64,000 nucleotides of DNA from a candidate division Zixibacteria bacterium RBG-1. Lineage in GTDB: Bacteria > Zixibacteria > MSB-5A5 > DSPP01 > RBG-1. The position numbers and the translations under genes were made by a program. Shown piece after piece: positions 26,373-58,647 of the stretch. Positions within the stretch are counted from its first letter, which is position 1. The number at the start of each line of letters is the position of its first letter. Below the pieces are notes generated by a model, which was given only the letters and a program-made list of their open reading frames with translations, ran no database searches and was not told the DNA's origin. The DNA lies in the NCBI GenBank assembly GCA_000447245.1, contig AUYT01000001.1, positions 40,825-104,824 of the forward strand, read 5' to 3'.

Positions 26373-29249
26373 TTAAGTACCTATACAACATTGGTTGTAA
26401 GGCACAGGTCGGGGACCGTTTCTAAATATGAAATTCACCAAGTAAACAATATCGGGTAACAGAATGGCGTTGTCAAAATTCACATCACCTCTACAGAAAG
26501 GGTTAGGAGTCGGCCCGGATTTGAAAAGAAAATTTATCAAAACAATTATGTCCGACAACAGCACCTTTCCGTCTCCGGTAACATCCCCGGCTCTGTGAGT
26601 GCAGGTTGCCATCGGAAACAGCTCGGTGGCTTTAATCCTAGCCCGGTCGGCAAAAATTAAAAGATTAGTCAGATTATTGGCAGCCACAAAAGCCATAATA
26701 GAGGTTATGGAATCCCCTGGAGCAATACTGTATGGACCGGAAGCAATAGTCATAGAGCCATCATCTGCTGAGGACTTAGCAGTGTCGATGAATCCTTCCG
26801 ACATCCACACATATTTTTCAGTATCGCTAATCCCGTCATAAACTATAGAATCGTTAACCAAAGCTTTGAAAGAGGTCACTCCCACAGTATCTAAAACGGC
26901 AATCCCTCTATAACGGGAGTTACTTCCTCCGTGCCACATGTACCCGATATTATTACTCCGGTTTAGACCGACAAAATCTTGTAAGCTGGGCAAATCCCAA
27001 TCTGTGTAACTTCCAATTCTTAAATTGCTTACTGGACTGGCTCCTTCATTATAAGCTGTATAACTGAAGATGACGAAATCATCAAACATAGTATCCGAGA
27101 AAGCAAAAGTCCTTTGGACAATTTTTAGGTCTAAGGGAGATTCGGCTTTCTCATCATTAAATATGGAGATGGTCTGTTGGCTTCCTTCACGGCCAGGAGA
27201 AATTTCGAGCATATCCCCCTGGGGAGCTACCGCAAAATCACTATCCGACATGAATCCGGTCCAATCTCTGGCACCGTCGGAAACATGAGAGATATCAGTG
27301 CCAATTAAAAGAGCCGCTTCAAAAAGGTCGTCGGTTCCTCCTACCTTAGGATAGATGAACCCTTTTCCTCCCAGAGGAGTTATGGAAATGTTGGATAAAC
27401 CGTACTGCCCAAAATTGGATATGGTAAAAATCACGTTCCCGGTATCCACATCCACCAAACTTCTTACGGGCTTGGCGGTGACGTAGAAAACTAAAGGCCA
27501 GTTCTCCTCATAACCCCCATCCCCTTTCATTTGCAGGTTAAAGGTCAATTTTTCACCCGGAAGGGCGCCGGGACTGACTTGAAAGATAAGCTGCTGGGCG
27601 AAGTTTACGGAGAATCCATCCCGGGGAATAGTTCCATAAAAGGCAGAATCTTGGGTTACGGTAGCAGAACTGGTGGTGCTGGTTAGAATAGCATAAACAT
27701 TGGTGGCAGCCAGACCGGTATTCTTTACCGTAATAAGAGCTGACAAAGCATCTCCCGGATCAGGGATGCTGTCATTATTGTCAGATAGTTCGATGGTAAA
27801 GACAAAAATCCTCGGGACCGTGACAGCCGGAAGTGAATCTATGGCTCTTTTGACATTGATTATTCCCCAGCCATAAGCGTTATCTTGACCAACAGCTCCC
27901 AAATCAGTGGCTGAAACCATTAAAGCCCTTTTGATTTCATCCGGCGTGGCGTTGGGATTGACCTGTCTTAAAATCGCCACTGCTCCAGCCACATGTGGAG
28001 CTGAAAAGGAGGTGCCGCTCTGGTTGGTATAACCTCCAAACCTGTTACTGGTCCGGATAAGTTCTCCCGGAGCCACTACCTCTGGTTTTATACTGACCCC
28101 ATCACAATCCGAAGGTCCACGACTGCTAAAGCCGGAAATAACATTACTGGAATTTACAGAGCCGACCGCAAAGCAGTTAAAATCGGTGGTGGCTCGGTTA
28201 GCGGGATTTCGAATGGTTTGAGCAGCGGTTCCTTCATTCCCCGCCGCAAATATAACCACTGCTCCGGCCGCCTCTAAGTTATCAATTACCTTCCAGTACA
28301 AAGGAAGACAACCTACATTAGCTGTTGGAATCCCCCAGGAATTATTCACTGCATCCGGAACGTCGGTTATGGTATTGGGATTTCCGTCCGGGTCAGAAGC
28401 CCATTGTAAGGCCTCTATTTCCACCGACCAGGTGGCGCCTATGTCTATGGCTCGAGCCGCTATCCACTGGGCTTCTATAGCCACTCCTACTGTATCATTG
28501 GTAACCAGAGAAGCTCCACACATCACTCCCATAGTCCCTGTGCCATGTCCGGCTACTCCACCAATATTGTCAGCCGGAAAAGTGCTTTTATAAACCGGGT
28601 CAAACCAGCTTTCAGCTACAGTTCCACCATTCACCCCTCTCCACCGGCCTGCCAAAGCGACATGATTGCCGTTGACCCCGGTATCTATATTACATAACAA
28701 TCTTCCGGCTCCTTCATAACCCAAACCCCAGGCCGAATCCACCTTTATGGCTTTAATGCCAGGTTCAACGCCTACCAAAGATCCGGCTACAGAGACCACC
28801 TCCACCGGTTTTATTATTTCTGGCTTGGGCTGGGCATAAACGGTTTCCACATCCCCCCGGGTGGCTAATTTTTCCACTTCTCTTTTGGTTGCCTTGACCC
28901 AAACCAGATTTGCTATCCAAAAGGCCTTATAGTCCTCAACTTCTCCTTTTTCTTTTTGGGTTTGCAGATAATTTAACAAGCCGGTTTGAGAGCTTTGAGC
29001 TTTCTGTTTCAGAGCCTCGATAACAATTTTATGACTGGTAGCTCGGTCAGCTTTGGTAGCTTTAAATTCGGATTTCAATTTGGCCATATCCACCTGGTCT
29101 TTCAAATCCAAAAGAACAGAGAAAAATTCAGTCGAAGCTCCCTGATTTAAAAGGGTTTGAAGGTACGGTTCCAAATCTGCCGCAAAAGAGGTGGCCAAAG
29201 CCAAACAAAAAAATAAGGTTCCCAAAATAAAAAAAGATTTTTTAAACAT
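26373..29249 (-). CDS. Secreted subtilisin-like (S8) serine protease with a C-terminal double dockerin-like module
   Basis: Signal peptide MFKKSFFILGTLFFCLALATSFA. Catalytic motifs NIDTGVNGNH (Asp), GHGTGTMGVM (His), SGTSFSAPHVAGAVAIL (Ser). C-terminus GDVTGDGKVLLSDIIVLINFLFKSGPTPNPFCRGDVNFDNAILLPDIVYLVNFIFRNGPRPVPYNQCCIGT. Start at the ATG at 29249 with an AGGAG RBS. Confidence 0.9.
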   Translation of the reverse strand: MFKKSFFILGTLFFCLALATSFAADLEPYLQTLLNQGASTEFFSVLLDLKDQVDMAKLKSEFKATKADRATSHKIVIEALKQKAQSSQTGLLNYLQTQKEKGEVEDYKAFWIANLVWVKATKREVEKLATRGDVETVYAQPKPEIIKPVEVVSVAGSLVGVEPGIKAIKVDSAWGLGYEGAGRLLCNIDTGVNGNHVALAGRWRGVNGGTVAESWFDPVYKSTFPADNIGGVAGHGTGTMGVMCGASLVTNDTVGVAIEAQWIAARAIDIGATWSVEIEALQWASDPDGNPNTITDVPDAVNNSWGIPTANVGCLPLYWKVIDNLEAAGAVVIFAAGNEGTAAQTIRNPANRATTDFNCFAVGSVNSSNVISGFSSRGPSDCDGVSIKPEVVAPGELIRTSNRFGGYTNQSGTSFSAPHVAGAVAILRQVNPNATPDEIKRALMVSATDLGAVGQDNAYGWGIINVKRAIDSLPAVTVPRIFVFTIELSDNNDSIPDPGDALSALITVKNTGLAATNVYAILTSTTSSATVTQDSAFYGTIPRDGFSVNFAQQLIFQVSPGALPGEKLTFNLQMKGDGGYEENWPLVFYVTAKPVRSLVDVDTGNVIFTISNFGQYGLSNISITPLGGKGFIYPKVGGTDDLFEAALLIGTDISHVSDGARDWTGFMSDSDFAVAPQGDMLEISPGREGSQQTISIFNDEKAESPLDLKIVQRTFAFSDTMFDDFVIFSYTAYNEGASPVSNLRIGSYTDWDLPSLQDFVGLNRSNNIGYMWHGGSNSRYRGIAVLDTVGVTSFKALVNDSIVYDGISDTEKYVWMSEGFIDTAKSSADDGSMTIASGPYSIAPGDSITSIMAFVAANNLTNLLIFADRARIKATELFPMATCTHRAGDVTGDGKVLLSDIIVLINFLFKSGPTPNPFCRGDVNFDNAILLPDIVYLVNFIFRNGPRPVPYNQCCIGT

Positions 29250-29693
29250 TAAGACTCCTTTTAGTGAAGATTTTTGGCACTCGGTTTTCTTTCTCAATTA
29301 GGATGATACATACACCTCTTTAAATATAATCAATTTTTATTATTTAACAAGCCCTTTTTGAAAGCACCGGTTTACCTGTTGAGGAAAGCAGCCTTGAATA
29401 GCCGGCAACTTCCCTAATTTAAAAAAAGTGCACCCTCAGCTGTTAAAATTGATACGAATTGACGAAGCCCGGTTTTTGGAATTGTGCAAAAAATGACGTA
29501 TGCCGAATATTGATTTTTTTATGAGAATTTACCTGCTCGACTTATGGGAGTCTCTTTTTTGTTCCCCCAACCCACTGTTAAATAGCACGGCTAACCAGCA
29601 GGTCGAAGTCAAATCCTTTAAGCCGATTTTAGAATTCGCCCTGTGAGGGGTAGTTTTGCTTGGCAAAAAATCCAAACCTATTTATCTTAGCCT

Positions 29694-30821
29694 ATGCCCT
29701 TACAAGAAACCATCCTTAAATTAGCCCAGATTAATCCGACCACCACCCCTTTTTTCAGCATCTATCTTAATACTTTAAAACCCCGAGGCAAGAAATCCAG
29801 CGGGGAGGTTTTTTTGCGAAAGATGATTTTACAGTTTGAAAATTTTCATTCCGAGTATGGATATGACGCTTCCTCGGTCAAGAAAGAAAAAGCTTTTTTA
29901 GAGAAAACCTTAAATGAGCTTACTTTTTCCCAGGCGGCCGGCTATGCTGTTTTTGTCAACAGCAGCCAGCATATTTATGAAACCCGGCAGCTCCCTTACT
30001 CTCCTGCCGATCAGTTTTTTTGCCAGCTGACCGCCAATCTCTATCCTTTGGTGAGGTTACAGCATGATTTGGAAAATTATGTGGCTGTAGTTTTGGATAC
30101 CCGCCAAGCCAAGATTTTCACCATCGGTTTAGGGAAAATCGTAGAGACCAAAATCCTGGAAAAAGAAGAGTTTGTAGATGTCCGTCTCAAAGAAAAGCTG
30201 GGGCGCTATAAAGTTTATAAGAACAAATTGGAAAGAAAACTTGACCTGTATATAGAAAATTTTGTGGAAGAAGTGCTCAAAGATGTAAAGCAGAAAGTCT
30301 CTGACCAAGCGGGTTTTTCTTTTTTTGCCGGGGATGAAGTGATTCTACCAGTAGTTGATAAAAAACTTTCCGGCCTCAAAAATTTTGAACATGGTTTTTT
30401 AAAAATTGATATCAAGACCCCTGCTCCTGAAGTTTTGTCTAAATCCTTAGCCGGCTTCAAGAAAAGCAAAAAGCAAAAACGGACCCAAATCTTACAAGAG
30501 TTTTTGGAACATTTGGGTTCCGGCAGAAAAATAATCTCCGGTTTTGAAAAAGCGTTTGAAAATTTCAAAAATGACAATATCCTGACTTTGATAGTGGGCT
30601 TAGCCCCCGGCTACGAAATCTGTTTTTGCCCTTTTTGCTGGTATTGGGAAAAAACCATCAAGTTAAAAACCTGCCCCAATTGTAATCTGCCTTTGGAAGT
30701 GGTGGATTACAGACACAAGCTGGTAAATTTAGCTTACCGATTCGGGGTAAAATTTCATTTTGTGGAAGAAAAGCCGGAATTTAAGAAAAAAGAAGGTGTG
30801 GGGGCTTATCTCAAAAGATAG
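29694..30821 (+). CDS. aeRF1/Pelota-like (bacterial 'baeRF1'-type) protein with a C-terminal zinc ribbon; no GGQ
   Basis: N-terminal FFSIYLNT; central YVAVVLDTRQAKIF strand; C-terminal G..KIISGFEKAFENFKNDNILTLIV. These resemble the three-domain eRF1/Pelota layout from memory. CPFCWYWEK...CPNCNLPL is a 4-Cys ribbon. There is no obvious RBS. Confidence 0.4.
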   Translation: MPLQETILKLAQINPTTTPFFSIYLNTLKPRGKKSSGEVFLRKMILQFENFHSEYGYDASSVKKEKAFLEKTLNELTFSQAAGYAVFVNSSQHIYETRQLPYSPADQFFCQLTANLYPLVRLQHDLENYVAVVLDTRQAKIFTIGLGKIVETKILEKEEFVDVRLKEKLGRYKVYKNKLERKLDLYIENFVEEVLKDVKQKVSDQAGFSFFAGDEVILPVVDKKLSGLKNFEHGFLKIDIKTPAPEVLSKSLAGFKKSKKQKRTQILQEFLEHLGSGRKIISGFEKAFENFKNDNILTLIVGLAPGYEICFCPFCWYWEKTIKLKTCPNCNLPLEVVDYRHKLVNLAYRFGVKFHFVEEKPEFKKKEGVGAYLKR

Positions 30822-32114: not shown

Positions 32115-33777
32115 CTAATTTCCAATACAGCAGTCGTCATAAGGTATTGGTGGAATTCCAGTTTTGAATAGATAATTTATGAGATAGACTACATCTGAAA
32201 GTTTTATCTTGCGGTCAAAATTGGGGTCATAGGCACACTTAGAGGTTGTCAAAGTATCTCCTCGGAAAAGATAATCTATGATTTGTATGATATCTGAAAA
32301 GCCTACCACTGTATCTCCGCTGGCGTCTCCGGGTTTGGCATTGCAGATATCGCTGTCGTGGTAGTTGTTGGTTCGGCGGTTGTTATGTCCGTAGGTGCCC
32401 CACTGGACCGAGCTGGCATCGTATTGGACTCCTAAATTATAAAGATACACATAAGCATAAAACTCCGCTGGATATCCTACCCCCTGTATGGTCACAATTA
32501 AGACACTCAAAGAATCACTTTTATCTACATCTCCTACGGCTGGAGCCAGAAGCCAAGGGTCCCCAATGAGCCTAATTGGATAGCCGGCTAACAAACTGCC
32601 ATTTAAAGAATAGGCGAAGACCTCCGTGCCTGAGATAGAATTCCCTGACCTTACCAATAAAATATCTATTGAATCATTATTATCTAAATCCACCAAAATC
32701 GGCTGATGGTCAAATTGGTAGTTCACTTCTAAGGGCCAGCCCGGATAAAACTCACCGTTGGGTTTTAGGATATTTATATACCCCCAAGAGTAAAGCACTA
32801 TTTCCAGCTCACCATCTTTATCTAAATCCCCGGCTACAGGTCCAGACCAAGGAGCATATATCAGTTGTTTAGGCCATCCCGAAAGCAGCTCTCCTTTCCA
32901 GTTAAACACCTCCACTGCCCCAGTTATCCGAGGCCAATCGTCTGGGTTACCGGCACCTCGGACAGCTATTATCTCCAAATTTCCATCTTTATTTAAATCC
33001 GCCAAAAGCGGAGAGCAACGATCCATATATTGAGTATATACTGTATCCACAGGCGCTTTAGGCCATCCCTCTACCAATTCCCCGGTATAACGCCAGGCCC
33101 AAGCAGAATCAAAAGCCAAAGCCACAACCTCTTTATAGCCATCTCCGTCTATATCTCCTACGGCTGGACAACCTCTTATAAATCCAGGGTGAATGGGATC
33201 AGTTTTTATTGTCTTGGGCCAGCCGGGGAGAAAAGTTCCATCAAGTTTATAAACATATATATCCTTCCCCCAAACCTCCTGGAAAATAATTTCTTTATTT
33301 CCATCATTATCCAAATCAGCCGGGACCGGCGGAGAAGCCGACTGTGCAGGAGTCCAGACAGGAAAATTAGTCCAGCTATTTCCCTTTTCGTCAATTATAT
33401 CTAATAACCCCTCTCGGGTAATGTTCACAATTTCATTTTTTTCCATCCCCATCTAAGTCAGCCGCCGAAGTTCCTCCATAAGGAAAGGGAGTTTCTTGCT
33501 TCGGAAAACCGCTCAAACTACTCCCCTGATAATCCCAAACATGCAAATATCCATCTCCTAAATGTAAAACAATTTCCAATCCGGGAATTGTATCTATTTC
33601 TGCTAAGGTATTGCTGAAATAGGGAAGCATAAAATTAGGATAACGACCTATGACCAGCGGGAAATTAGGGTACAAAACTGGCGGTGCAGAAAGAACAATA
33701 CCGATATTCAGCAAAATCAATAAAAAAATTAAAACAATGAATTTAACTTCTTTCAAAATCTCAAACATGGTATTCAT
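32115..33777 (-). pseudogene. Secreted FG-GAP/VCBS-repeat protein with a C-terminal double dockerin-like module, split by a +1-nt frameshift in an A7 run
   Basis: ORFs 33433..33777 (signal peptide ... SAADLDGDGKK*) and 32115..33452 overlap by 20 nt. Removing one A from the coding-strand A7 run (33436-33442) gives the continuous DLDGDGKNEIVN. C-terminus ...GDASGDTVVGFSDIIQIIDYLF...DPNFDRKIKLSDVVYLINYLFKTGIPPIPYDDCCIGN. Confidence 0.75.
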
Positions 33778-33837: not shown

Positions 33838-34266
33838 CTACGGGTGGTCGCAAGTAACCGCTGTGAAGTGCTGTTGGTATACCGTGGTTCCCGGATGCCA
33901 ATACACCGAATCTCTAGATTCGGGAGAAACTCCGCCAGTGTGGGCAAGGTCTGGGAAGAGTTTATAATATCCGGTTTGATTATCTATATCGTCGGGGGTG
34001 ACTAACCACTTATAACCGGCACCAAAGTGCGTCACCTCTCCATAGGTGACATAAGCTAGTCCTCCTGCGGTCCACTTGTAGACAAGTACGCGGTCACCCA
34101 CGCCATACTCGCAGTCGATTCCGTCATAGAAGATACTACCTGTTATAGCTTCATCCCCGCCACCAGCGGAATCTTGGGCTTGAATCACTGGCTGAGCAAT
34201 AAAATAACCTATTAAGCCAACAGTGACAAAACCTATTAAGAATAATAAAAATGTTTTCTTTCTCAT
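33838..34266 (-). CDS. Small secreted hypothetical protein
   Basis: Signal peptide MRKKTFLLFLIGFVTVGLIGYFIAQPVIQA. GGAAGGAG RBS. No recognisable family. Confidence 0.6.
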   Translation of the reverse strand: MRKKTFLLFLIGFVTVGLIGYFIAQPVIQAQDSAGGGDEAITGSIFYDGIDCEYGVGDRVLVYKWTAGGLAYVTYGEVTHFGAGYKWLVTPDDIDNQTGYYKLFPDLAHTGGVSPESRDSVYWHPGTTVYQQHFTAVTCDHP

Positions 34267-34495: not shown

Positions 34496-34960
34496 TCAAA
34501 TCTCCCAATAAAAACCACCTTTGAAATCCTTATCCTTTATTTTCACCCAATACAATATTTCATATTTCCCCTTTTCCGCTAATTTGAAATAATGACAGAA
34601 ATGATTGGTCATATACATGGTAGTCTTAATCTGGTCTTCTTTCTTAGGGGTAATCACTTTTACTTTAACCGTAGCATCTGTGATTTCTTTGCCGGTCTTC
34701 TCATCTTTAATAGTCACCGCAAAATGATGAGTCATGCTTTTATCCATACTCAGCATGGCCTCTTCCCCTTGGGCTAACTCTTTATCCGTCTTTTTCGTTT
34801 TATCCAAAAAATCCTTATTGGGTAATATTTCAAAAGCGAGTTTGTAGCCGTCTATGGCAATTTCTTTGATTCTCGCAGGCAACTTCTTCTCTTCTGCGGC
34901 ACAACCGAGAATGCTTAAGCTAAATAGAATCGCTAAACTAAAATGCAAAAAAGTTTTCAT
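34496..34960 (-). CDS. Lipoprotein, hypothetical (possibly YtkA/FixH-like Ig-fold), last gene of the metal-efflux cluster
   Basis: Lipobox LSILGC. His/Met-containing beta-rich body (MTHHFAVTIKDEKTGKEITDATVKVKV...MYMTNHFCHYF). GAGGAG RBS 15 nt after the stop of the upstream YHS gene. Confidence 0.6.
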   Translation of the reverse strand: MKTFLHFSLAILFSLSILGCAAEEKKLPARIKEIAIDGYKLAFEILPNKDFLDKTKKTDKELAQGEEAMLSMDKSMTHHFAVTIKDEKTGKEITDATVKVKVITPKKEDQIKTTMYMTNHFCHYFKLAEKGKYEILYWVKIKDKDFKGGFYWEI

Positions 34961-34974
34961 AAGTACTCCTCTTA

Positions 34975-35136
34975 TTAAAATTCTTCCTCTTTCTCTTCAA
35001 TAAAATCTGGGGGGGATTGCTCGAATTCTTCTTTACATGTTTTGGAACAGAAATAAAAGATTTTCCCTTTATAAATGTAAGTTTCCTGAGCTTGGCCGTG
35101 TTTTACTTCCATACCGCACACCGGGTCAGTCGGCAT
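34975..35136 (-). CDS. YHS-domain (TRASH-type) small metal-binding protein, 53 aa
   Basis: Below the ORF-track size cutoff. Manual translation: MPTDPVCGMEVKHGQAQETYIYKGKIFYFCSKTCKEEFEQSPPDFIEEKEEEF, with the canonical DPVCGM...YYFCS..C motif. AAGGAGG RBS. Confidence 0.8.
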   Translation of the reverse strand: MPTDPVCGMEVKHGQAQETYIYKGKIFYFCSKTCKEEFEQSPPDFIEEKEEEF

Positions 35137-35183
35137 TTTGTCCTCCTTTTCGCCAAAAGCGGATTCTCCTTAAGCGGAGATTT

Positions 35184-35375
35184 TTAACGTGAGCCTTTTT
35201 CATCTTTAGGGATTTTAAGTTTGCGCACGTCTTCCCAGTAATATTTTTTAGGGTTTTTTTCGAACTCTTTTTGACACTTATCCGAACAAAAGAAATAAAA
35301 TTTCCTCTGGTACAAAATTTTATGACTGTTTTCTTCTTTATTTATTTTTTTATGACAGACTGGGTCAAAATACAT
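35184..35375 (-). CDS. YHS-domain-like small protein, 63 aa
   Basis: MYFDPVCHKKINKEENSHKILYQRKFYFFCSDKCQKEFEKNPKKY. Start moved to the ATG at 35375 because the upstream part of the track ORF overlaps the 3' end of cusA. Confidence 0.75.
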   Translation of the reverse strand: MYFDPVCHKKINKEENSHKILYQRKFYFFCSDKCQKEFEKNPKKYYWEDVRKLKIPKDEKGSR

Positions 35376-35386
35376 ATAATTAATTT

Positions 35387-38521: not shown

Positions 38522-38532
38522 TTTTTTAAAAT

Positions 38533-39918: not shown

Positions 39919-39962
39919 AAATCCTCCTGTAAAACAAAAAGGTAGTGGGGGCACTGTTCCCC

Positions 39963-42396: not shown

Positions 42397-42454
42397 TCTG
42401 TTTTTGATGTGCGATGAATCGCACCGCTACGAAGAGAATTTTAGGGGAGATTTA

Positions 42455-44062
42455 ATGAAGAAAAGCTACTTTTTTATTATTGGCATTGTGTTTCTGCTCA
42501 CATTTTTTAAAATTTCATTTTCTCAAAGTCCGGATTCGATACCGTTTGCACCGGCAATTAATTATCCCACTGGTGCAAATCCCCTGTCAGTATTTGCTTC
42601 CGATTTAGACGAAGACGGTGACAATGATTTGGCATTAGTAAATACATCAAGTAGTTTGGTTTCAATTTATATGAATGATGGGAATGGCACATTCGGACCA
42701 AAAGTCGACTACGGAATAGGAAAAACTCATTTCTCTCTTTTTGTTTCTGACTTGGATGGAGATACTTATGAAGATTTGGCAGTAGCAAATTGGGATAATA
42801 ATGATGTATCTCTTTACAAAAATACTGGTAACGGCACATTTTCACCTCAAAGTAACCTTGGGGCAGGCAATCGTGCTTCCTCAGTTTTCGCTTCAGACCT
42901 AGACGGAGATACAGATAAAGACCTGGCAGTTGCAAATTCTAACGCCAGCACGGTATCAATACTAAAAAACAATGGTGATGGGACTTTTGCTCCAAGCGTG
43001 TCTTATGAAATAGGGGGCTATCCTCTTTCAGTTTTTGCTGCAGATTTAGATGGAGACGGAGACAACGATTTAGCGTTACCAAATGGCGGTACTGCTGTGG
43101 CAGTGTTAATGAACAATGGAGACGGTACTTTTGCCACAAAAGTAGAGTACGGTACTGGAGAGGCACCATTTTCGGTTTTTGTGGCAGATCTAGACGGGGA
43201 TGGCGACCGAGACTTGGCCACAGCAAATGTCAATTATGGTACCGCTTCAGTTCTAAAAAACAATGGGGACGGATCTTTCTTTGGAAGAACCGATTATTTC
43301 ATGGGTGATTTTTGCCGTTGGGTTATTGCTTCGGATTTGGACGGCGATGGGGACCAAGAATTAGTAACTGCAAACCAAGGTAGTGGGACCATTTCAATTC
43401 TGAAGAACAATGGGGCAGGAGTTTTTTTTGCCAAAGTTGATTACTTTGTTGGAAATAGTCCTACTTCAATTTTTGCTTCAGATTTAAATGGCGATGGACA
43501 CCAAGATTTAGCAGTGACCTTATTAAGCGACAGTGTCTCTATACTAATGAATTTATCTTGTCTTCTTGCTCCACAAATAATGTCACTCCAACCGTTACAA
43601 GTGGTAGAAAACGAGAGTTTAATTGTCCCAGTATCTGTTTATGGAAGTTGCCCACAAATTCCTACTCTCTCCGCCCTCACCCTCCCTCCCAACTCCTCCT
43701 TCTTCGACTCCGGCAACGGCTCCGGCTCTTTCACCTTCACCCCGGATTTCACCCAAAGCGGAATCTATAATGTCACCTTCATCGCCTGCGACACAGTCGC
43801 CTGTGACAGCGAAACCGTCCAAATCACCGTCAACTGCGGCGAAACCAAACGAGGCGACCCCAATGGAAACGGACAAATCACTCTGCCCGATATCATCTAC
43901 TTAGTCAACTATGTCTTCAAATACGGACCAGCTCCGGTCCCGGAAAAATGCGACGGGGATGCCAACAACGACACCCAGGTCAACCTGTCCGACATCCTGT
44001 ATTTAGTCAACTACGTCATCAGAGATGGTCCACCTCCCCAGCCGCCAACCTGCTGCTTGTAG
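42455..44062 (+). CDS. Secreted FG-GAP/VCBS-repeat protein with an Ig-like domain and a C-terminal double dockerin-like module
   Basis: Signal peptide MKKSYFFIIGIVFLLTFFKISFSQ. About 7 repeats of the type F.SDLDGDGD.DLAV.N....VS.L.NNGDGTF. C-terminus GDPNGNGQITLPDIIYLVNYVFKYGPAPVPEKCDGDANNDTQVNLSDILYLVNYVIRDGPPPQPPTCCL. Confidence 0.85.
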   Translation: MKKSYFFIIGIVFLLTFFKISFSQSPDSIPFAPAINYPTGANPLSVFASDLDEDGDNDLALVNTSSSLVSIYMNDGNGTFGPKVDYGIGKTHFSLFVSDLDGDTYEDLAVANWDNNDVSLYKNTGNGTFSPQSNLGAGNRASSVFASDLDGDTDKDLAVANSNASTVSILKNNGDGTFAPSVSYEIGGYPLSVFAADLDGDGDNDLALPNGGTAVAVLMNNGDGTFATKVEYGTGEAPFSVFVADLDGDGDRDLATANVNYGTASVLKNNGDGSFFGRTDYFMGDFCRWVIASDLDGDGDQELVTANQGSGTISILKNNGAGVFFAKVDYFVGNSPTSIFASDLNGDGHQDLAVTLLSDSVSILMNLSCLLAPQIMSLQPLQVVENESLIVPVSVYGSCPQIPTLSALTLPPNSSFFDSGNGSGSFTFTPDFTQSGIYNVTFIACDTVACDSETVQITVNCGETKRGDPNGNGQITLPDIIYLVNYVFKYGPAPVPEKCDGDANNDTQVNLSDILYLVNYVIRDGPPPQPPTCCL

Positions 44063-44211: not shown

Positions 44212-44832
44212 TTAAGGGCTGCTGAACACATAATTGACCAAGAGCAGTATGTCAGTCAAATCCACTCTGGCGTCTTCGTTCATATCACCCGATAAAAAGA
44301 AGGGAATCGGCTCCGGACCTCCTCTGAAGACGTAGTTGACCACGTAGACAATGTCGATTAAGGTGATTTTCTCATCTCCGTTGGCATCTCCCGGGGTATA
44401 TAATTCATATTCACTGATATCACAGCAGGAGCCGTTGGTTTGAATAGCCAGAGTCACCAGACGCGGCACCACATACAACAGCAGTTTTTTCTTCCAGACC
44501 TTGCCGGTTTGGGTGGTAATCTGAAGCTCCAGCTCGCCTCCTAAGGAATCCGAGCCGGGGGCTATGCCAAAGCTAAACACAGCTGTATCCGACAGGGTTG
44601 GCTGTATATTGCCAAAATCAACAAAGGTTGGTGTAAAATTAACCACCCAGGGGGGAGAACTGATCAAAGCCACGGCCACACCATGTAAGGGCTGGCTACC
44701 GGTATTTTCAATTATCAAAGTGTAGATATTCCCCACCGAGGAATTCTCCACCTCATAAGCCATAAGGGGTGAAAAGGCCGTCAACCACATCCCGCTCAAA
44801 ATTAAAATGATATGTAGTAGTTTTTTCAGCAT
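44212..44832 (-). CDS. Secreted protein: beta-sandwich-like N-domain plus a double dockerin-like module lacking the terminal Cys-Cys
   Basis: Signal peptide; GDANGDEKITLIDIVYVVNYVFRGGPEPIPFFLSGDMNEDARVDLTDILLLVNYVFSSP at the C-terminus. Confidence 0.7.
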   Translation of the reverse strand: MLKKLLHIILILSGMWLTAFSPLMAYEVENSSVGNIYTLIIENTGSQPLHGVAVALISSPPWVVNFTPTFVDFGNIQPTLSDTAVFSFGIAPGSDSLGGELELQITTQTGKVWKKKLLLYVVPRLVTLAIQTNGSCCDISEYELYTPGDANGDEKITLIDIVYVVNYVFRGGPEPIPFFLSGDMNEDARVDLTDILLLVNYVFSSP

Positions 44833-44837
44833 CAGCT

Positions 44838-47698: not shown

Positions 47699-48730
47699 CT
47701 ATCTGCGACTTACCCAAATGTCAGTACCTCCAATGCTACCCGGTCTGCCACCCGAAGCAAAATAAAGGCTTAAACCATCATAAGTCATGCTAGGAGAAAG
47801 GCAACGGAAGGAATCATTCACGGGAGAAGGTACAGTATCGGCTACACTCCAGTCCCCACTCTCAAAATAAGAAGCATATATCTGGGGACCATAGAAATTC
47901 CATCTTATGAAGTGCAGCATTTTCCCGTCTGCAGAAATATTAGGGTCATCTTCTGTGAAATTGGCGTTAACTCCTGGCCCCAAAGGGACTGAGGTGCCCC
48001 ACCCAGACCCATTCCATGTGCTAACTCTAATACCGAAGACAGAATTAAAATAAAGTTTGTTATTATCAGCAGTAAGTGAGGGAGATCCCTCGTCGTATGC
48101 AGTATTGATATTAGCACCTAAGTTTATGGGTTCTCCCCATTCGCCCAAAGAACTGTCCCAAACAGACATCCAAATATCGTCTCCTCCTAATCCTGTGAGT
48201 CTTTCTGACTCAAAAAATAGTCTTTTTCCATCAGCTGTGACGAAGGGTTTCGCTTCATAATAAGCACTGTTAACCTTTCCAGGTATTCTGACCGGCACAC
48301 TCCAAGATAAACCATCCCACACTGAATAGTAAATGTCGTCAGATCCTAATGTCCCTAGGCTAGCAAAATAAAGAGTATTACCATCTGGTGATATACAAGG
48401 CGTTACTTCAGCACCCGCAGTATTCACCGGCGGTCCTAAATTCTGCGGCTCTCCCCAGAGAGGACAACCATCTGGAACAGGTCCCCCTTTAAAAACATAA
48501 TTCACCAGATAAATCAAATCAGTCAGATTGGTCTGGCAGTTGGCATTCACATCCCCGGAAAAGCGAATAGCAGGCGAAGGTCCCCCCTTAAAGATATAAT
48601 TCACCAGATAAACAATATCGCCCAAGTTTACTTTGGAATCGTTATTCACATCACCGGGAATTAAAGCATAAGCAGATGAGAGATAGAGAAAAAGATAAAA
48701 TACCAAAAGTAAAGATAATGTCTTAAACAT
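47699..48730 (-). CDS. Secreted TolB-like (PD40) beta-propeller protein with an N-terminal double dockerin-like module
   Basis: Signal peptide, then GDVNNDSKVNLGDIVYLVNYIFKGGPSPAIRFSGDVNANCQTNLTDLIYLVNYVFKGGPVPDGCP. Then repeated P.N....E..P.IS.DG..LYF units. Confidence 0.8.
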   Translation of the reverse strand: MFKTLSLLLVFYLFLYLSSAYALIPGDVNNDSKVNLGDIVYLVNYIFKGGPSPAIRFSGDVNANCQTNLTDLIYLVNYVFKGGPVPDGCPLWGEPQNLGPPVNTAGAEVTPCISPDGNTLYFASLGTLGSDDIYYSVWDGLSWSVPVRIPGKVNSAYYEAKPFVTADGKRLFFESERLTGLGGDDIWMSVWDSSLGEWGEPINLGANINTAYDEGSPSLTADNNKLYFNSVFGIRVSTWNGSGWGTSVPLGPGVNANFTEDDPNISADGKMLHFIRWNFYGPQIYASYFESGDWSVADTVPSPVNDSFRCLSPSMTYDGLSLYFASGGRPGSIGGTDIWVSRR

Positions 48731-48769: not shown

Positions 48770-49840
48770 TTAATTCTTAATCTTTCCGCCTACTACTTCA
48801 ATCTTCGGCTTTTCCGAACCAAAAACCTCCCCTATGATTTTAGCTTCTTTAACCCCCTGCTGGTGTAAAGCGTTAAGCAAACTTTCAGCTCTTTCTTTGG
48901 AAATAGAAATGAAAAGCCCTCCGGAAGTCTGCGGGTCAAAGAAAAGCTCCTGCATCACAGGAGAAATTCCCTCTTCAAATTCAATATTATCCCCAACCGC
49001 CTGCTGATTCGATTCGGTCATACCCATCCTGACCCCTTTGGCAATCATATCCAAACTTTCCGGGTAGTGGGGAATTTCATTGGCATACAATCTGATTCCA
49101 ACTTTACTTGCTCGAGCCACTTCCCAGGCATGTTCCGCCAAGCCGAATCCGCTGATATCTGTGGCAGCTGAAGCGTTATATTCCACCATTAAGCGGCTGG
49201 CTACCTCATTTAAGCGGGCCATGTTAAGACACACTTTTCTCACAATTTCATCCGATATCAATCCTAATTTCTTCCCGTGAACTATCACGCCGGTCCCGAT
49301 TAACTTGGTTAGAACTAGGATATCTCCGGCTTGCGCCGTAGAATTTCTTTTGATTTCGCTGGTTTTAGCAATTCCGGTAACTGCTAAACCATATTTTAAT
49401 TCATCATCTTTGACAGTGTGCCCTCCCAATAAAACTGCTCCGGCTTGGTTGAGAGTTTCCAAGCCCCCTCTTAGGATTTCCGCCAAGAACTGCTTATCAA
49501 TTCCTCGTGAGGGAAAACAGCATAAATTTAAAGCGGTCAGGGGACGACCACCCATGGCGTAGATGTCGGACAGCGAATTGGCTGCTGCTACTTTGCCGAA
49601 TAGAAACGGGTCATCAATAACCGGGGTAATAAAATCAGCGGTCTGGACTAAATTCAGGTCGTCTGTGAGGCGGAATACTCCCCCGTCGTCGGAGGTCTCA
49701 AATCCGACTACCACATTTTCATTGGGCATCTGGGTTATATCTTTGACGATTTCAGCTAAGTCCACCGGACTTAATTTTCCGGCTCAGCCACCGGACTTAG
49801 CAAAACCAGTCAACTTGCAAGTTTTACTTTTCTCCATCAT
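48770..49840 (-). CDS. selD: Selenide, water dikinase (selenophosphate synthetase) with in-frame UGA (selenocysteine) at codon 19
   Basis: The track ORF (from 49765) lacks the SelD N-terminus. Extending upstream in frame gives MMEKSKTCKLTGFAKSGG-TGA-AGKLSPVDLAEIV, which matches the conserved G(U/C)G.KLSP active-site loop. The TGA is at 49784-49786. The AIR-synthase-like body is intact. Confidence 0.88.
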
Positions 49841-50072: not shown

Positions 50073-50079
50073 AGAATTT

Positions 50080-52455
50080 ATGCCGTTGGGAGTTAAGATT
50101 ACCAGTTGCGGATTTTTTTTATTTTTAGGGTTGAGTTTATCCTCAATACTTTTGGCTTTTGAACCAATTTTTGATACCTGGTTAAGCTACGAAGTAAGTG
50201 ATAATCCACAAGCGGTCTATGCCTCAGATGTTGACGGTGATGGAGACAGCGACCTGATAGTGGTCAGCTATAACCTTAATGCAGTTTCCATCTTAAAAAA
50301 CAACGGAGACGGCACTTTTTCCGGCAACCAGAATTATGGCACGGGGAATGGTCCGGTTGCGGTTGCCGTGGGAGACCTGGACGGAGACACCGACCCAGAT
50401 TTAGCAGTAACCAATTCGGCTTTTTTGGTTAATACCGTTTCGGTTTTAAAAAACAATGGGAATGGCACTTTCGCCCTCAAAGTTGATTACAAAACCGGAA
50501 GCTCTCCCTACGGGGTGGTCACGGCTGACTTAGACAGAGATAACGACTTAGATTTAGCTGTGGTTAACGGAGTGGACAGCAGTGTTTCAATTTTAAAGAA
50601 CAACGGAGATGGAACTTTTGCCGCTAAAGTTGATTATAGAGCAGGCAATAATCCCCGGGGAATTTTTGCGGCTGACGTCAATGGAGATACCGCTTTGGAT
50701 TTGGTGGTTGCCAATTTCGGCAGTTCCAACGTCTCGGTGTTGAGAAATAATGGGAACAGTACTTTTGCACCCAGAGTGGATTATCCGGTAAAATTAGATG
50801 ATGGTCCCTTTTCTGTCTTTGTCCAAGATTTGGATAATGACTTTTTCCTTGATATAATCACCAGTAATTTTTATGGCAGCAATGTCTCGGTTCTGCGAAA
50901 TAACGGAGACGGCACCTTCGCTCCCCGAGTCAACTACACCACCGGCAACAATCCTTTCTCAGTCTATGTTAAGGACTTAGATGCAGATGGTTATGCGGAT
51001 ATCGTCTCTGCCAATCGTTCGGGTCACAGTATTTCTGTTCTAAAAAACAACGGGAACGGCACTTTCGCTCCTAAAGCTGACTACCCTTCTGGCAACCTTC
51101 CCCTCTCGGTTTTTGTCTCTGATTTGGACTCTGATTTTGATCCCGATATCATAGCCGCCAATTCGGGAAGTAATTCGGTTTCGTTGTATCGCAACAACGG
51201 TCAAGGAAGGTTTTCCACGGTCACCGATTATGTAACCAGCGTAACCCCCCGCTCGGTTTTTGTTTTCGACGTGGATTTAGACCAGGATAAAGATTTGGCT
51301 ATTGCCAATGCCGGCAGTCACACCGTTTCGATATTCAAGAATAGTGGAAATGGAACTTTTCCAATTAAAGTAGAGTACGGCACCGGTATAGCTCCGGTGG
51401 CGGTGGCCGCCGCTGATTTGGATGGTGACGAAGACCAGGACCTGGCCATAGCCAATTCCGGCAATAATACTGTTACTATTTACAGAAACGATGGCCTGGG
51501 AGGTTACCAAGGAATTGAATCTCGAGACGATTATCCTACCGGTAAGTATCCTTACTCGCTTGCCATAAACAATTTCGACCGGGACGTGGATTTGGATATT
51601 CTGGTGGCTAATGGCGATGATAGTACTCTTTCCCTTTTAAGAAATCTGGATACGGCCATTTTCGAAGCGGAAGAATTTATTAACACCGGCCCCAATCCCC
51701 GCTCGGTTATTATGGCGGACCTGGACAAAGACGGATATCAGGATATTGCTGTGGCTAATTCGGGGAACGACACTTTAGTCACTTTTGTCAAGGCCTACCG
51801 TTTTGAATATACCACAGGTAATAGCCCCAGCTCTGTATTCGCGGCCGACTTGAATGGGGATGGTTTTTTGGATTTAGCGGTTTCCAATTATCTTGACCAT
51901 ACGGTTTCGGTTTTTATTAACAAAGGGGATAGCACTTTTTATCCCCGGACGGATTTTAGAACCGCCAAAAACCCCAATGCCATTGTAGCCGCAGATTTTG
52001 ACCGGGATGGAGATAATGATTTGGCGGTTTCCGGTTGGAATGCTAACGCGGTAACTTTATTGAGGAATAACGGAAGCGGTTTCTTTTCAGTCAGAGTGGA
52101 TTATGGGGTGGGCACCGGACCGACCTCCTTGGCCGCCACCGACTTAGATTTTCCAGCCGACGGAGTCCCGGAGCTTCTGGTTACCAATTCCGCCGGTAAT
52201 ACTCTTTCGATTTTGAAGAATATAGCGCCACCTTGTGCAGGTAAAATCGCGGACCTAAACGGTGATAATCGAATTCTGCTTTCGGACATCGTGTTTTTGA
52301 TCAATATTGTTTTTCGCGCTGAACTCCCCCCCAGTCCATTCTGTCGGGTAGATGTAGACGGAAACGGCTCTATCAATGTCTCAGATATTATCCGCTTGGT
52401 CAACTATCTTTTCAAAAGTGGCGAACTGGTTTTGACTGACGTTTGCTGCTTCTAA
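50080..52455 (+). CDS. Large secreted FG-GAP/VCBS-repeat protein with a C-terminal double dockerin-like module
   Basis: Signal peptide. About 11-12 repeats (e.g. DVDGDGDSDLIVVSYNLNAVSILKNNGDGTF). C-terminus ADLNGDNRILLSDIVFLINIVFRAELPPSPFCRVDVDGNGSINVSDIIRLVNYLFKSGELVLTDVCCF. Confidence 0.85.
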   Translation: MPLGVKITSCGFFLFLGLSLSSILLAFEPIFDTWLSYEVSDNPQAVYASDVDGDGDSDLIVVSYNLNAVSILKNNGDGTFSGNQNYGTGNGPVAVAVGDLDGDTDPDLAVTNSAFLVNTVSVLKNNGNGTFALKVDYKTGSSPYGVVTADLDRDNDLDLAVVNGVDSSVSILKNNGDGTFAAKVDYRAGNNPRGIFAADVNGDTALDLVVANFGSSNVSVLRNNGNSTFAPRVDYPVKLDDGPFSVFVQDLDNDFFLDIITSNFYGSNVSVLRNNGDGTFAPRVNYTTGNNPFSVYVKDLDADGYADIVSANRSGHSISVLKNNGNGTFAPKADYPSGNLPLSVFVSDLDSDFDPDIIAANSGSNSVSLYRNNGQGRFSTVTDYVTSVTPRSVFVFDVDLDQDKDLAIANAGSHTVSIFKNSGNGTFPIKVEYGTGIAPVAVAAADLDGDEDQDLAIANSGNNTVTIYRNDGLGGYQGIESRDDYPTGKYPYSLAINNFDRDVDLDILVANGDDSTLSLLRNLDTAIFEAEEFINTGPNPRSVIMADLDKDGYQDIAVANSGNDTLVTFVKAYRFEYTTGNSPSSVFAADLNGDGFLDLAVSNYLDHTVSVFINKGDSTFYPRTDFRTAKNPNAIVAADFDRDGDNDLAVSGWNANAVTLLRNNGSGFFSVRVDYGVGTGPTSLAATDLDFPADGVPELLVTNSAGNTLSILKNIAPPCAGKIADLNGDNRILLSDIVFLINIVFRAELPPSPFCRVDVDGNGSINVSDIIRLVNYLFKSGELVLTDVCCF

Positions 52456-54756: not shown

Positions 54757-54775
54757 GTAGATTGGCTCACCGAGT

Positions 54776-55099: not shown

Positions 55100-55147
55100 A
55101 ATTCCTTGCTCCAATATAAATATACGGATGGTTTGGCCATCTATTTA

Positions 55148-55220: not shown

Positions 55221-55519
55221 TTTAAAGTAATAAAAAAATGCTATTTGTCAAGAGGGTTATATGTACTTGCAGAAGCAAGTCTAAGAACACTGCCTAAAAG
55301 CTCTTGAATACACTTAAAAATTTGTAATCTACTGCAGATTGTATGAAGCATCTTGCACAAGCTTTGTTCAGAAATTGTGCTGGTAAATTTGAGTGAATTT
55401 TTCTAGTCATTTCTATCTTGTTTAAATTGAACATCTTACTTGGGGCTTAAAATCAGGGCCTGATACTTTCTGGTCAATTTTATTACAAGGCACTCTTTTT
55501 GCTCAAAGGGAGTGTGGTT

Positions 55520-56158
55520 ATGGGTGCAGAAAAACTTATCAACGGCTTCAAAAGAGGCTTCCCTCCCCAGTGGCTGGAAAGGCAGTCGGAGCCCAAAATC
55601 GGGAAAGATGAAAAAGGGTATTTCATCTATACCATCAGTGAAAATACCAAAGTTTACTTCGAAGAATATTATCAGTTTTTAGAAAAAATAGAGCAAAAGT
55701 GCCAGCTTGACCTGTCCAGCTTAGAGGGAAAATTGAGCCAGACTCCTCCGACCCGGTCTGAGAGTCTGGCCTATTACCGGGCCCGCAAGATTATCCTAGA
55801 CTTACTTCTGAAAAATATCTTCTCCTTTTATTCTGACTCCAGCAATTTAGGGGTGATTATGACCCCCTGGTGTTTCGGGACTGTCATGTTAGAAAAAGTG
55901 GAAATCTACAAAGACCGGATTGCCCGGGGAGAAGCCAACGACCCCGACGTGGGGGATTTCCCCTTTTATGTGTTAGGGTACATTGATGAAATTTACAAAA
56001 ATACCCTGCTGGAGCTTTTTGAGTTTCCGGAAAAAGCATTTTCGGTCAGATGGCAGTACACCGAGCTTCTGAAAAGATATTCCAAGGTTCTATCCAACGT
56101 AACCGCTTCTTTGCAGAGCATCTTATTCTTAGCTAAAAATCAAAACCAGGAAACCTAA
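55520..56158 (+). CDS. Hypothetical protein
   Basis: Uninterrupted ORF. ATG at 55520 with a GGGAG RBS. No family recognised. Confidence 0.55.
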   Translation: MGAEKLINGFKRGFPPQWLERQSEPKIGKDEKGYFIYTISENTKVYFEEYYQFLEKIEQKCQLDLSSLEGKLSQTPPTRSESLAYYRARKIILDLLLKNIFSFYSDSSNLGVIMTPWCFGTVMLEKVEIYKDRIARGEANDPDVGDFPFYVLGYIDEIYKNTLLELFEFPEKAFSVRWQYTELLKRYSKVLSNVTASLQSILFLAKNQNQET

Positions 56159-56159
56159 T

Positions 56160-56435: not shown

Positions 56436-56642
56436 CGGCGGCATTGTCACTTGTGCATTTTAGGCAATTTTACCCTCTAATTTAGTGAAAATTTCTCCTA
56501 TTTTCTGAGCTTATCTCCCTCATTTTGCTCCCTTTTTATACAATTTTTTTTTATATTTTTTCCTGTATAAATCTTGCTCCGCAAAATGCCGAAATAATAG
56601 GTGAGTGCAGCTTTGCCCGGACACTTTGAACCCAGGAACCAA

Positions 56643-57014: not shown

Positions 57015-57030
57015 ATTAATAAAAAATTCT

Positions 57031-58647
57031 CTACAAACAGCATTCCCTATTTTTCACCGGTGCTGGACCGGATTTAAAAATAAAATTAATTAGGTACATA
57101 ATATCTGAGAGTTGAATATTACTATCAGCATTGGCATCACCTCGGCAGAAAGGATTGGGGGCGGGTTGAGATTTGAAGAGATAATTGATGAGGGTAACAA
57201 TATCAGGTAAAAGAATTTTATTATCTGCCGTAGCATCTCCGGCTAAAGCAATACAGTCAAATTGAATACATTTAATGGTGAGGTAATCATAACTACTGGG
57301 ATAGGACAACCTACTCGAACTACCCACTACATAAACATTCCCTTTATCATCAACTTTTAAAGCGGAAGGAAAGTCATTACCGTTGGCGGGACCGTCGTAA
57401 TGTCTTACCCAGACTGTATCCCCTTCTGGAGTATACTTAAGCGTGGCATAGTCATAATCAAGATAAAGGTTACTGCGACCAGTAACATATACATTTCCAA
57501 AAACGTCAACGTCTAAGGCAATGGCTATTTCATCATTGTCCCAAGGACCGTTATAAACTCTTTGCCATACGACATCTCCATTAGCAGCATACTTTATGGT
57601 ACCGTAATCCGTGTTTGGAAATGATCCAACTACTCCCGTCACGTACACATTTCCACTGTCATCAACTGTTAAAGCTCTAGATTCATCACTGGAACCATAT
57701 AGTCCACCATCGTGATATTTTAGCCATAAAAGATTTCCATTAAGGTCATACTTGAGGGTAACATAATCAAATAAAGTTACAGTATCAGATGTCCTGCCCG
57801 TAACATAAACATTCCCACTCCTATCTATATCTAAATCCCAAGGAATGTCGGAGCCGTGAGCTGGTCCGTCGAAACGCCGCAACCATAGAGTGTCTCCGTT
57901 GGGAGAATACTTAATAGTAACTATATCCCCAAAAGTGATGGTATCAAAACTAATACCAGTCACGTACGCATTCCCGCTGTCATCCACTGTTAAAGCAGTA
58001 GCAATATCATCACTGTTTCCGGGTCCGTTATAACGTCTTACCCATATTGTATCTCCATCTGGACCATACTTTATGGTAGCGTAGTCATCTCCTGTAATAC
58101 CACCCCAACTTGTGCCTGTCACATACACATTCTCTTTTCCGTCGATTGCCAAAGTGGTGGCCAGATCTCTGTTATTCACAGGTCCATTATAGCGTCTGAC
58201 CCATAGTATGGCACCATTACTAGAATACTTTATTGTGGCGTAATCAAAATAAGTTACTCCCCACTGGCCATCACTACTCCCAGTTACATATACATTACCT
58301 TTTCCATCTACTTTTATAGAAGTAGCAATATCGTCACCCGAAGCGGGTCCGTCGTATGTTCTTACCCATAAGATATTTCCATTAGGTGCATACTTAACTG
58401 TTGTATAATCAAGATAAGTGCCATTGCCATAGCTACCACCAGTCACATATACATTTCCGCTATCATCCACGGCCAATGCAGTAGCTGAATCTACTCCATT
58501 TCCCGGACCATTATAACGTCTTACCCAAGCCGTGTCCACCTGAGCCAAGACAGAAATATTGAAAAGAAATGTTAATAATAGTAGAATAGCTTTTTTGACT
58601 TTCAAACTTCCCTCCCTAAATTTCTCTGTGGCAGTAATATAATACAT
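57031..58647 (-). CDS. Secreted SBBP-type beta-propeller repeat protein with a C-terminal double dockerin-like module
   Basis: About 8 repeats of W.RRYNGPGN..D.A.A..VD.SGNVYVTG....DY.T.KY. C-terminus GDATADNKILLPDIVTLINYLFKSQPAPNPFCRGDANADSNIQLSDIMYLINFIFKSGPAPVKNRECCL. Confidence 0.85.
   Translation of the reverse strand: MYYITATEKFREGSLKVKKAILLLLTFLFNISVLAQVDTAWVRRYNGPGNGVDSATALAVDDSGNVYVTGGSYGNGTYLDYTTVKYAPNGNILWVRTYDGPASGDDIATSIKVDGKGNVYVTGSSDGQWGVTYFDYATIKYSSNGAILWVRRYNGPVNNRDLATTLAIDGKENVYVTGTSWGGITGDDYATIKYGPDGDTIWVRRYNGPGNSDDIATALTVDDSGNAYVTGISFDTITFGDIVTIKYSPNGDTLWLRRFDGPAHGSDIPWDLDIDRSGNVYVTGRTSDTVTLFDYVTLKYDLNGNLLWLKYHDGGLYGSSDESRALTVDDSGNVYVTGVVGSFPNTDYGTIKYAANGDVVWQRVYNGPWDNDEIAIALDVDVFGNVYVTGRSNLYLDYDYATLKYTPEGDTVWVRHYDGPANGNDFPSALKVDDKGNVYVVGSSSRLSYPSSYDYLTIKCIQFDCIALAGDATADNKILLPDIVTLINYLFKSQPAPNPFCRGDANADSNIQLSDIMYLINFIFKSGPAPVKNRECCL

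Follow-up and report, generated by a model that had tools for sequence, protein, structure and literature searches.

The 64,000-nucleotide stretch analysed here, hereafter the window, belongs to candidate division Zixibacteria bacterium RBG-1 (assembly GCA_000447245.1, contig AUYT01000001.1, positions 40,825 to 104,824 of the forward strand). It possesses exactly seven open reading frames (ORFs) with a double F-hand module of ~70 amino acids, all of them between 26.4 and 58.6 kb. These modules are almost certainly genuine type I-like dockerins with a three-helix fold, and not merely dockerin-like. The cysteines of five of them probably serve as disulfide staples, with bond formation and pairing inferred from sequence patterns. 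By analogy with Cloacimonadota, docking to a cohesin-type partner is put forward tentatively, at slightly less than balanced confidence. Dockerin identity, disulfide staples and cohesin-type docking, taken together, form a reading that we regard as evenly poised.

The dockerin module and its seven carriers

ORFs of the window were listed and translated, domains were assigned with Pfam, and a hidden Markov model (HMM) of the seven modules was compared with the six-frame translation of all 64 kb. The HMM recovers exactly those seven, with E-values between 3.5e-29 and 4e-37, so the module is shared far beyond chance. Pfam Dockerin_1 (PF00404) matches all of them (p1 to p7 along the window) with 20.9-36 bits, around the gathering cutoff of 22.9: p4 (36.0), p5 (35.4), p6 (24.5) and p7 (22.9) lie at or above the cutoff, p1 (21.1), p2 (20.9) and p3 (22.2) just under it, by 0.7-2 bits. 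Among the 14 calcium loops, positions 1 and 12 are Asp in all cases, position 3 is Asn, Thr, Ser or Asp in 14 of 14, and position 5 is Asp or Asn in 14 of 14; position 9 is variable.

The AlphaFold2 (AF2) model of the p7 module, based on a 127-sequence alignment, has a mean predicted local distance difference test score (pLDDT) of 89.9 and helices at residues 30-41, 50-53 and 63-74. Its 32 best Foldseek matches in the PDB are all dockerins (target TM-score 0.52-0.87, at least 0.70 in 29 of 32; root-mean-square deviation 1.4-3.7 Å), including 2ccl_B (TM 0.86) and 1ohz_B (TM 0.87), and this search returned no non-dockerin match above a probability of 0.02. The Pfam matches, the exclusively dockerin Foldseek matches and the calcium ligands together place the module in the dockerin fold family.

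With the type I dockerins of clostridial and ruminococcal cellulosomes (1OHZ_B, 2CCL_B, 4DH2_D) the modules have in common the duplicated ~22-residue F-hand with ligands at positions 1, 3, 5 and 12, the three-helix fold and the C-terminal site on proteins with signal peptides. They are, however, only 15-31% identical to solved dockerins, lack the Ser-Thr recognition pair at loop positions 10-11, possess co-varying cysteine sets, and carry a nearly invariant YLxNYLFKxGPxP stretch after each loop; the full signature of this sub-branch reads D-[IV]-[IV]-Y-L-[IV]-N-Y-[LIV]-F-K-x-G-P-x-P. The cargo likewise differs, consisting of a protease, beta-propellers and FG-GAP proteins instead of carbohydrate-active enzymes, and the host is a diderm candidate phylum. 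A first-pass annotation of the same DNA had described seven secreted proteins with a common double module, a dockerin-like pair of EF-hand-like loops with 12-residue geometry and an extra conserved tail (YLVNYLF.GP.P); in the window the HMM finds just those seven, the Dockerin_1 matches, the AF2 fold and the retained calcium-ligand positions bear out the second point, and the alignments confirm a distinctive YLxNYLFKxGPxP tail.

The seven carriers, assigned by ORF, Pfam and HMM, are the following:

26373..29297, minus strand: p1, secreted subtilase with Peptidase_S8 at residues 197-478 and a C-terminal four-cysteine dockerin (module 26376-26603; Cys at residues 899, 935, 970 and 971; ends CCIGT)
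32115..33777, minus strand, including a split-off 5' fragment (listed ORF 32115-33452): p2, FG-GAP/FG-GAP_3 protein with a C-terminal four-cysteine dockerin (module 32118-32345; ends CCIGN)
42404..44062, plus strand: p3, FG-GAP/FG-GAP_3 plus Big_9 protein with a C-terminal four-cysteine dockerin (module 43835-44059; ends CCL)
44212..44832, minus strand: p4, 206 residues consisting of a signal peptide, a beta domain of ~7 strands and a dockerin (module 44215-44427)
47699..48730, minus strand: p5, PD40 (TolB-like) propeller with an N-terminal dockerin right behind the signal peptide (module 48464-48664)
50080..52455, plus strand: p6, 13-repeat FG-GAP/FG-GAP_3 protein with a C-terminal four-cysteine dockerin (module 52234-52452; ends CCF)
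57031..58647, minus strand: p7, SBBP beta-propeller with a C-terminal four-cysteine dockerin, the module used for modelling (module 57034-57255; ends CCL)

Sec-type signal peptides are present on all seven with the exception of the p2 ORF as listed, whose signal peptide lies on the upstream fragment 33433-33777 together with the first FG-GAP repeat (a weak FG-GAP match). A frameshift within an A-run near 33436-33443 (...GAT GGA AAA AAA TGA...) breaks the p2 gene in two; with a single A deleted, the FG-GAP consensus DLDGDGKNEIV reappears and the fragment becomes continuous with p2. A sequencing error, a pseudogene and slippage-prone phase variation are all conceivable causes. All seven ORFs terminate behind their modules with TAA or TAG. 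The S8, FG-GAP, TolB-like (PD40 in Pfam) and SBBP domains named in the first pass are supported by Pfam, whereas p4 has no recognisable Pfam domain besides the dockerin; its N-terminal domain, with ~7 strands over ~95 residues, reaches an AF2 pLDDT of only 38 (three-sequence alignment). On the minus strand, p4 likely closes a three-gene operon (44212-47404) with a 551-aa secreted protein (45749-47404) and a 304-aa tetratricopeptide repeat protein (44838-45752).

Cysteine sets and a putative covalent clasp

In the five four-cysteine modules of the window, one cysteine (C1) stands before the first repeat (CTHRAGD, CNAKPGD, CGETKRGD, CAGKIAD, CIALAGD), one (C2) between the repeats (FCRGD, KCAYD, KCDGD, FCRVD, FCRGD), and a Cys-Cys (CC) pair, C3C4, ends the protein (CCIGT, CCIGN, CCL, CCF, CCL). 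C1 is located 5-6 residues ahead of the Gly or Ala opening loop 1, C2 two residues ahead of the loop-2 Gly, and CC 8-10 residues past the last helix and 1-3 residues from the stop; the spacing is 36-38 residues from C1 to C2 and 34-35 from C2 to C3. In the p7 model C2 (residue 51) falls inside the short middle helix (50-53). The p5 module contains the other, two-cysteine set, with one residue in loop 2 (NANC) and one past GPVPDG. The p4 module has neither tail nor internal cysteines; its conserved CC sits 12-13 residues upstream of the first loop, and in p4 and its homologue P0186 this lone pair comprises the sole cysteines.

From retrieved proteins and loci 687 non-redundant modules were extracted, a sample biased towards the query, so that its frequencies should not be taken as population estimates. 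The 239 non-redundant C-terminal modules comprise 57 with a CC tail, 52 of which also have C1 and C2, and 182 without it, of which 18 have both (odds ratio 95, Fisher p = 4e-31). Where the tail has one cysteine only, it is accompanied by a loop-2 cysteine ('NCD', p = 2e-7) or by C1 alone. Even numbers are favoured per C-terminal module (two cysteines in 91 modules, four in 53 and none in 12; one in 11, three in 37 and five in 15), so modules with zero cysteines also exist. The two-cysteine classes are C1 plus tail (78 modules), loop 2 plus tail (77) and C2 plus tail (12); six further modules have C1 (at -3 to -5) and C2 and no tail cysteine. C1 lies at exactly -1 in 25 of 52 four-cysteine modules, and at -5 in the window type.

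A less biased sample of 45 modules, from loci fetched via the SBBP domain, contains 42 C-terminal ones, of which 34 have a single terminal cysteine, five have CC and three have none. A near-terminal cysteine is the rule, and CC is a minority subtype enriched in the window lineage. Where orthologues can be traced, the set is kept: the p6 orthologue on the syntenic contig of Zixibacteria RBG_16_40_9 retains all four cysteines (PPC..., ...ACEGD..., ...GGCCF*) despite the diverged rest of its module, and the p7-like proteins P0126, P0144 and P0150 retain C...C...RECCL or KECCL. The four cysteines are not family-wide and represent one of several discrete co-varying sets. Such sets were not found described in the literature searched and are, to this limited extent, new.

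Since each putative staple also occurs alone as a two-cysteine class, the four-cysteine pattern can be read as two superposed staples, C1-tail and C2-tail. Two intramolecular disulfides would tie the C-terminal tail to the N-terminal segment and to the inter-repeat linker in the five modules, and p5 would possess an alternative single disulfide from the loop-2 to the tail cysteine. The motifs and the C...C...CC endings quoted by the first-pass annotation are present exactly as given, and its suggestion of stapling disulfides gains from the larger sample, in which the cysteines behave as a coordinated set with staples as the probable best explanation. Whether a terminal CC is obligatory had been asked there, and it is not: in related loci only five of the 42 C-terminal modules have it, and 34 end with one cysteine. 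The comparison with Dockerin_1 that it proposed gives a divided answer: all seven modules match and four reach the cutoff; the cysteines are not family-wide, yet they persist in traceable orthologues.

Several solved dockerins possess a clasp between their termini: in their crystal structures the stretch ahead of loop 1 (-1 to -3) touches residues past the last helix (PMC3821032), and clasp mutants of ScaADoc drop from a melting temperature of 61 °C to 41-55 °C and bind cohesin ~10 times more weakly (PMC3821032). C1 (at -1 or -5) and the tail cysteine of the present family occupy the clasp segments described for the R. flavefaciens ScaA dockerin and others (PMC3821032). The known clasps are non-covalent, with stacking or salt bridges (PMC3821032), whereas the one proposed here would be covalent, with a putative second bond to the inter-repeat linker. 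As the clasp segments are those that bear C1 and the tail cysteine, a covalent clasp appears the most economical reading, in which the staples would do by covalent bonds what non-covalent contacts between the termini do in stabilising clostridial and ruminococcal dockerins. Anaerobic fungal dockerins offer an example of a small disulfide-stabilised docking module used outside the cell by an anaerobe; as is generally known, they are not homologous, have another fold and are without F-hand calcium sites. The stabilised module could act as a calcium-dependent plug by which proteases, propellers and FG-GAP proteins are docked to a partner whose gene lies in another part of the genome and which, by the Cloacimonadota analogy, may be a cohesin-type scaffold or anchor displayed via the type IX secretion pathway.

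Alternative readings and the search for a partner

Several observations weigh against stapled modules that dock to cohesins. Disulfides outside the cell of an anaerobic host may be less stable in reducing sediment, and odd cysteine counts are not rare. The small class of six modules with C1 and C2 makes a C1-C2 bond plus a vicinal C3-C4 bond possible for the window subtype, and the lone CC of p4 and P0186 is explained by neither a staple nor a metal model. Proteins consisting solely of tandem dockerins, up to 12 of them, are ill-suited to a simple picture of enzymes on a scaffold. Finally, Cohesin (PF00963) has no match in the window ORFs scanned (a set without HdrA and IleRS), including at E <= 1 for the unannotated ORFs; none was found in six giant family proteins or in the neighbourhoods of three other dockerin genes, and a weak, low-sensitivity profile of three CipA cohesins returned nothing below E = 0.3 when run against 269 family proteins and related loci totalling ~1.4 Mb. 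The cohesin searches cover the window plus a few related loci, a small part of any Zixibacteria genome.

The first pass had likewise recognised no cohesin-like partner in the window. The dedicated surface assembly or anchoring system to which it pointed is still a suggestion, no receptor having been found in the window or the loci searched. Five ORFs were considered as receptor candidates and rejected (45749-47404, 29694-30821, 33838-34266, 34496-34960 and 55499-56158), since neither Cohesin nor anything else informative turned up for them in Pfam, PDB or PADLOC; the first of them is the 551-aa secreted protein upstream of p4.

Dockerins that function without cohesin, through calcium-dependent adhesion to a polysaccharide, an envelope component or an outer-membrane protein, through self-association, or as rigid calcium-stabilised spacers, are unlikely, though they deserve serious attention. 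Such roles would agree with the lack of a cohesin in the window, related loci and giant proteins searched, with proteins of 4-12 tandem dockerins alone, which reverse the logic of poly-cohesin and mono-dockerin, and with modules in N-terminal and internal positions. The helix signature YLxNYLFKGGPxP, near-invariant across thousands of proteins of several phyla, is also more readily reconciled with a single shared ligand than with a multitude of co-evolving cohesin specificities. In 2009 Peer et al. reportedly found that, outside cellulosomes, dockerin-like modules have a wider distribution than cohesins, and dockerins of non-cellulosomal proteins for which no cohesin is known have been under discussion since then. 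To our knowledge, however, every experimentally characterised dockerin of this fold binds cohesin, and the searches spanned only a small fraction of any Zixibacteria genome.

A cohesin scaffoldin has moreover been reported in Cloacimonadota alongside similar dockerin-tagged S8 peptidases (PMC8542988). There, Ca. Stygibacter has C-terminal dockerins on S8/S53, C25, GH18 and GH57 enzymes and a scaffoldin of 3,755 residues with tandem cohesins, carbohydrate-binding modules and a surface-attachment C-terminal domain (CTD), inferred to be of the type IX secretion system (T9SS) type (PMC8542988, citing Lasica et al. 2017). Like the organism of the window, it is an uncultured anaerobe with a signal-peptide S8/S53 peptidase bearing a C-terminal dockerin, and T9SS CTDs are present in Zixibacteria loci too; in contrast to Ca. 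Stygibacter (PMC8542988), where the cohesin scaffoldin is known and cysteine staples are not described, no cohesin was found here in the searched loci.

The cysteines themselves have been open to other readings. The first-pass annotation had offered a terminal modification or sorting signal as an alternative to staples, and a new C-terminal tag for processing, lipidation or covalent anchoring might be suspected, as CC lies 0-4 residues from the C-terminus in five of the six C-terminal modules of the window and in most four-cysteine modules elsewhere, and a cysteine occurs within the last few residues in 39 of 42 C-terminal modules of related loci. This is very improbable. CC co-varies strictly with two upstream cysteines; behind it there is neither a hydrophobic helix nor a basic tail nor any conserved residue (52 modules; window tails IGT, IGN, L, F, L); and equivalents of the tail cysteine occur in N-terminal and internal modules that precede hundreds of residues (~250 in p5), with 343 internal and 75 N-terminal modules among 615 following the same cysteine logic. 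The five CC-ending proteins of the window do not have the tripartite organisation of C-terminal signals of the LPXTG, PEP-CTERM, GlyGly-CTERM and MYXO-CTERM types, and we know of no bacterial pathway that modifies a C-terminal Cys-Cys.

A metal site (Zn, Fe, Cu) or a redox switch, with the C-terminal vicinal pair as a dithiol controlling docking, is improbable as well. C-terminal vicinal cysteine pairs bind Hg in MerA, and thioredoxin reductases have a redox-active C-terminal Cys-Cys or Cys-Sec (Sec, selenocysteine). In the present modules the four cysteines from three chain segments appear to converge, as judged from the model and the decomposition into classes, the CC of p4 and P0186 cannot make an ordinary disulfide between segments, and the habitat is anoxic. 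The commonest classes, however, have two cysteines only, which fit a disulfide and are too few for a tetrahedral metal site; most counts are even, co-variation with His, Asp or another ligand is absent, and no Sec replaces Cys in any examined module although the organism decodes Sec. It is similarly doubtful, and to be given little weight, that the cluster acts as a thiol switch or cross-linker, with docking locked by an intermolecular disulfide to a non-cohesin receptor or gated by redox state or metal; such a receptor would explain the poly-dockerins and the unseen cohesins.

Selenocysteine in the staple positions was considered and rejected: all loci re-translated with TGA as U gave only ordinary TGA stops past the modules. 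The idea came from a weak match of p4 to the NCBIfam 'Omp28-related selenoprotein' and from a Sec-containing SelD in the window; no paper pairing Omp28 with selenoprotein was found in the literature searched. The SelD gene (48770-49840, minus strand) is interrupted by an in-frame TGA within its glycine-rich motif near the N-terminus (KSGG[TGA]AGKLSP), past which the listed ORF begins, so SelD is itself a selenoprotein and the organism decodes Sec. It is followed after 39 nt by p5 on the same strand. Past the SBBP-dockerin genes of two metagenome-assembled genomes (MAGs; loci L017 and L002), a TGA after GPAPCI is succeeded by an in-frame conserved x-QFRVC and a second stop; this stretch is probably conserved 3' DNA of close orthologues, with Sec read-through as the alternative. 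A 749-aa protein (21281-23530, minus strand) that combines a membrane segment at its N-terminus with a Thioredox_DsbH (DUF255) domain is possibly an extracytoplasmic thiol-redox protein, and any link to the cysteine-rich dockerins is speculative.

The T9SS CTD (Por_Secre_tail, PF18962) resembles the dockerin as a shared tag on diverse exoproteins and by its place at the C-terminus of SBBP propeller homologues; in fold (a beta-sandwich) and in sequence it is unrelated to the dockerin. Homologues of p7 in Ignavibacteria, KSB1, Calditrichaeota and Niastella (Bacteroidota) end in Por_Secre_tail where the Zixibacteria proteins end in a dockerin. Por_Secre_tail has no match in the seven proteins, and a local CTD HMM none in the window, with many in loci of Ignavibacteria, KSB1 and Bacteroidota. 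By this local profile 19 loci have dockerin only, 34 CTD only and three both. The exchange of position in p7 homologues and the prevalence of loci with one tag or the other might suggest that the dockerin replaces the CTD as the outer-membrane export signal of Zixibacteria. This is hardly credible, as Zixibacteria loci also encode T9SS CTD proteins and modules occur in N-terminal and internal positions. Both tags moreover occur on single proteins: L007:755-1861 (Zixibacteria MAG, JBARPA010000258.1) has an N-terminal dockerin and a C-terminal T9SS CTD, P0012 four tandem cysteine-rich dockerins and a CTD-like tail (below the Pfam threshold), and P0076 three internal dockerins and a CTD. The dockerin is therefore a passenger domain and not a replacement export signal. 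The alternation of dockerin and T9SS CTD on homologous proteins is new, if of limited novelty.

Family, relatives and genomic setting

A profile search of 1.84 billion representative proteins yielded 39,314 clusters (50% identity) at E <= 1e-3 and 9,739 at E <= 1e-10. PF00404 is already annotated on ~110 of 120 relatives in an annotated collection, and NCBI names members 'dockerin type I repeat-containing protein [candidate division Zixibacteria]'. The dockerin tag itself is thus already known and annotated, and the module is not a new tag, as it belongs to a family of this size that public annotation labels Dockerin_1. No paper linking Zixibacteria with dockerin was found in the literature searched. 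Some relatives have up to 12 tandem modules, and proteins of 4-12 tandem dockerins without other domains exist; P0001-P0011 (e.g. P0001 and P0008) consist almost wholly of 6-12 tandem dockerins, each with its own cysteine set.

The loci closest to p7 belong to Zixibacteria MAGs. The IleRS at the window end is 88% identical to that of Zixibacteria RBG_16_40_9 and 60-68% to those of many other Zixibacteria. Related Zixibacteria loci possess up to six modules in 16-21 kb at a strict threshold, and the dockerin-gene density of the window is typical for the lineage. On the syntenic contig of RBG_16_40_9 (L085, MEWL01000123.1), compared with 54.7-59.4 kb of the window, p7 is missing between the response regulator and YggS, and an uncalled 547-aa dockerin ORF of the loop 2 plus tail type lies a few kb away (L085:4687-6327), without counterpart in the window. 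The absence of p7 together with the additional ORF indicates that dockerin-tagged genes are variable cargo with presence/absence turnover even among close relatives.

Outside the dockerin genes, the minus strand of 1402-9762 encodes a [NiFe] hydrogenase of the Mvh type (a maturation protease, both the large and the small subunit, and MvhD/FlpD); genes resembling HdrA, HdrB/CCG and HdrC and a rubrerythrin gene come next; the Mvh/Hdr genes point to an anaerobic metabolism with flavin-based electron bifurcation. Between p2 and p3 lies a heavy-metal-type resistance-nodulation-division efflux operon (34496-41222, minus strand) with an OEP outer-membrane factor, a HlyD_D23/CusB-like adaptor and the ACR_tran pump, then a small YtkA-like lipoprotein. 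A 375-aa ORF (29694-30821, plus strand) has a weak match to baeRF family 10 (bacterial archaeo-eukaryotic release factor) and a C-terminal four-cysteine zinc-ribbon-like motif (CFCPFC...CPNC). An Rfam scan of the window detected only a tRNA.

Dockerins are the textbook case of proteins assembled from modules outside the cell, and synthetic biology makes wide use of them. A specialist will be only moderately surprised, the dockerin call having already been made by automatic annotation. The modules of the window belong to a very large environmental branch of dockerins, centred on Zixibacteria and neighbouring candidate phyla, which tags exoproteins that are not carbohydrate-active and has repeatedly acquired discrete cysteine sets resembling covalent clasps. 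Staples, should they be confirmed, would show how nature makes hyper-stable dockerins, and the identity of the partner would reveal the organisation of the cell surface in an abundant, uncultured phylum of sediments.

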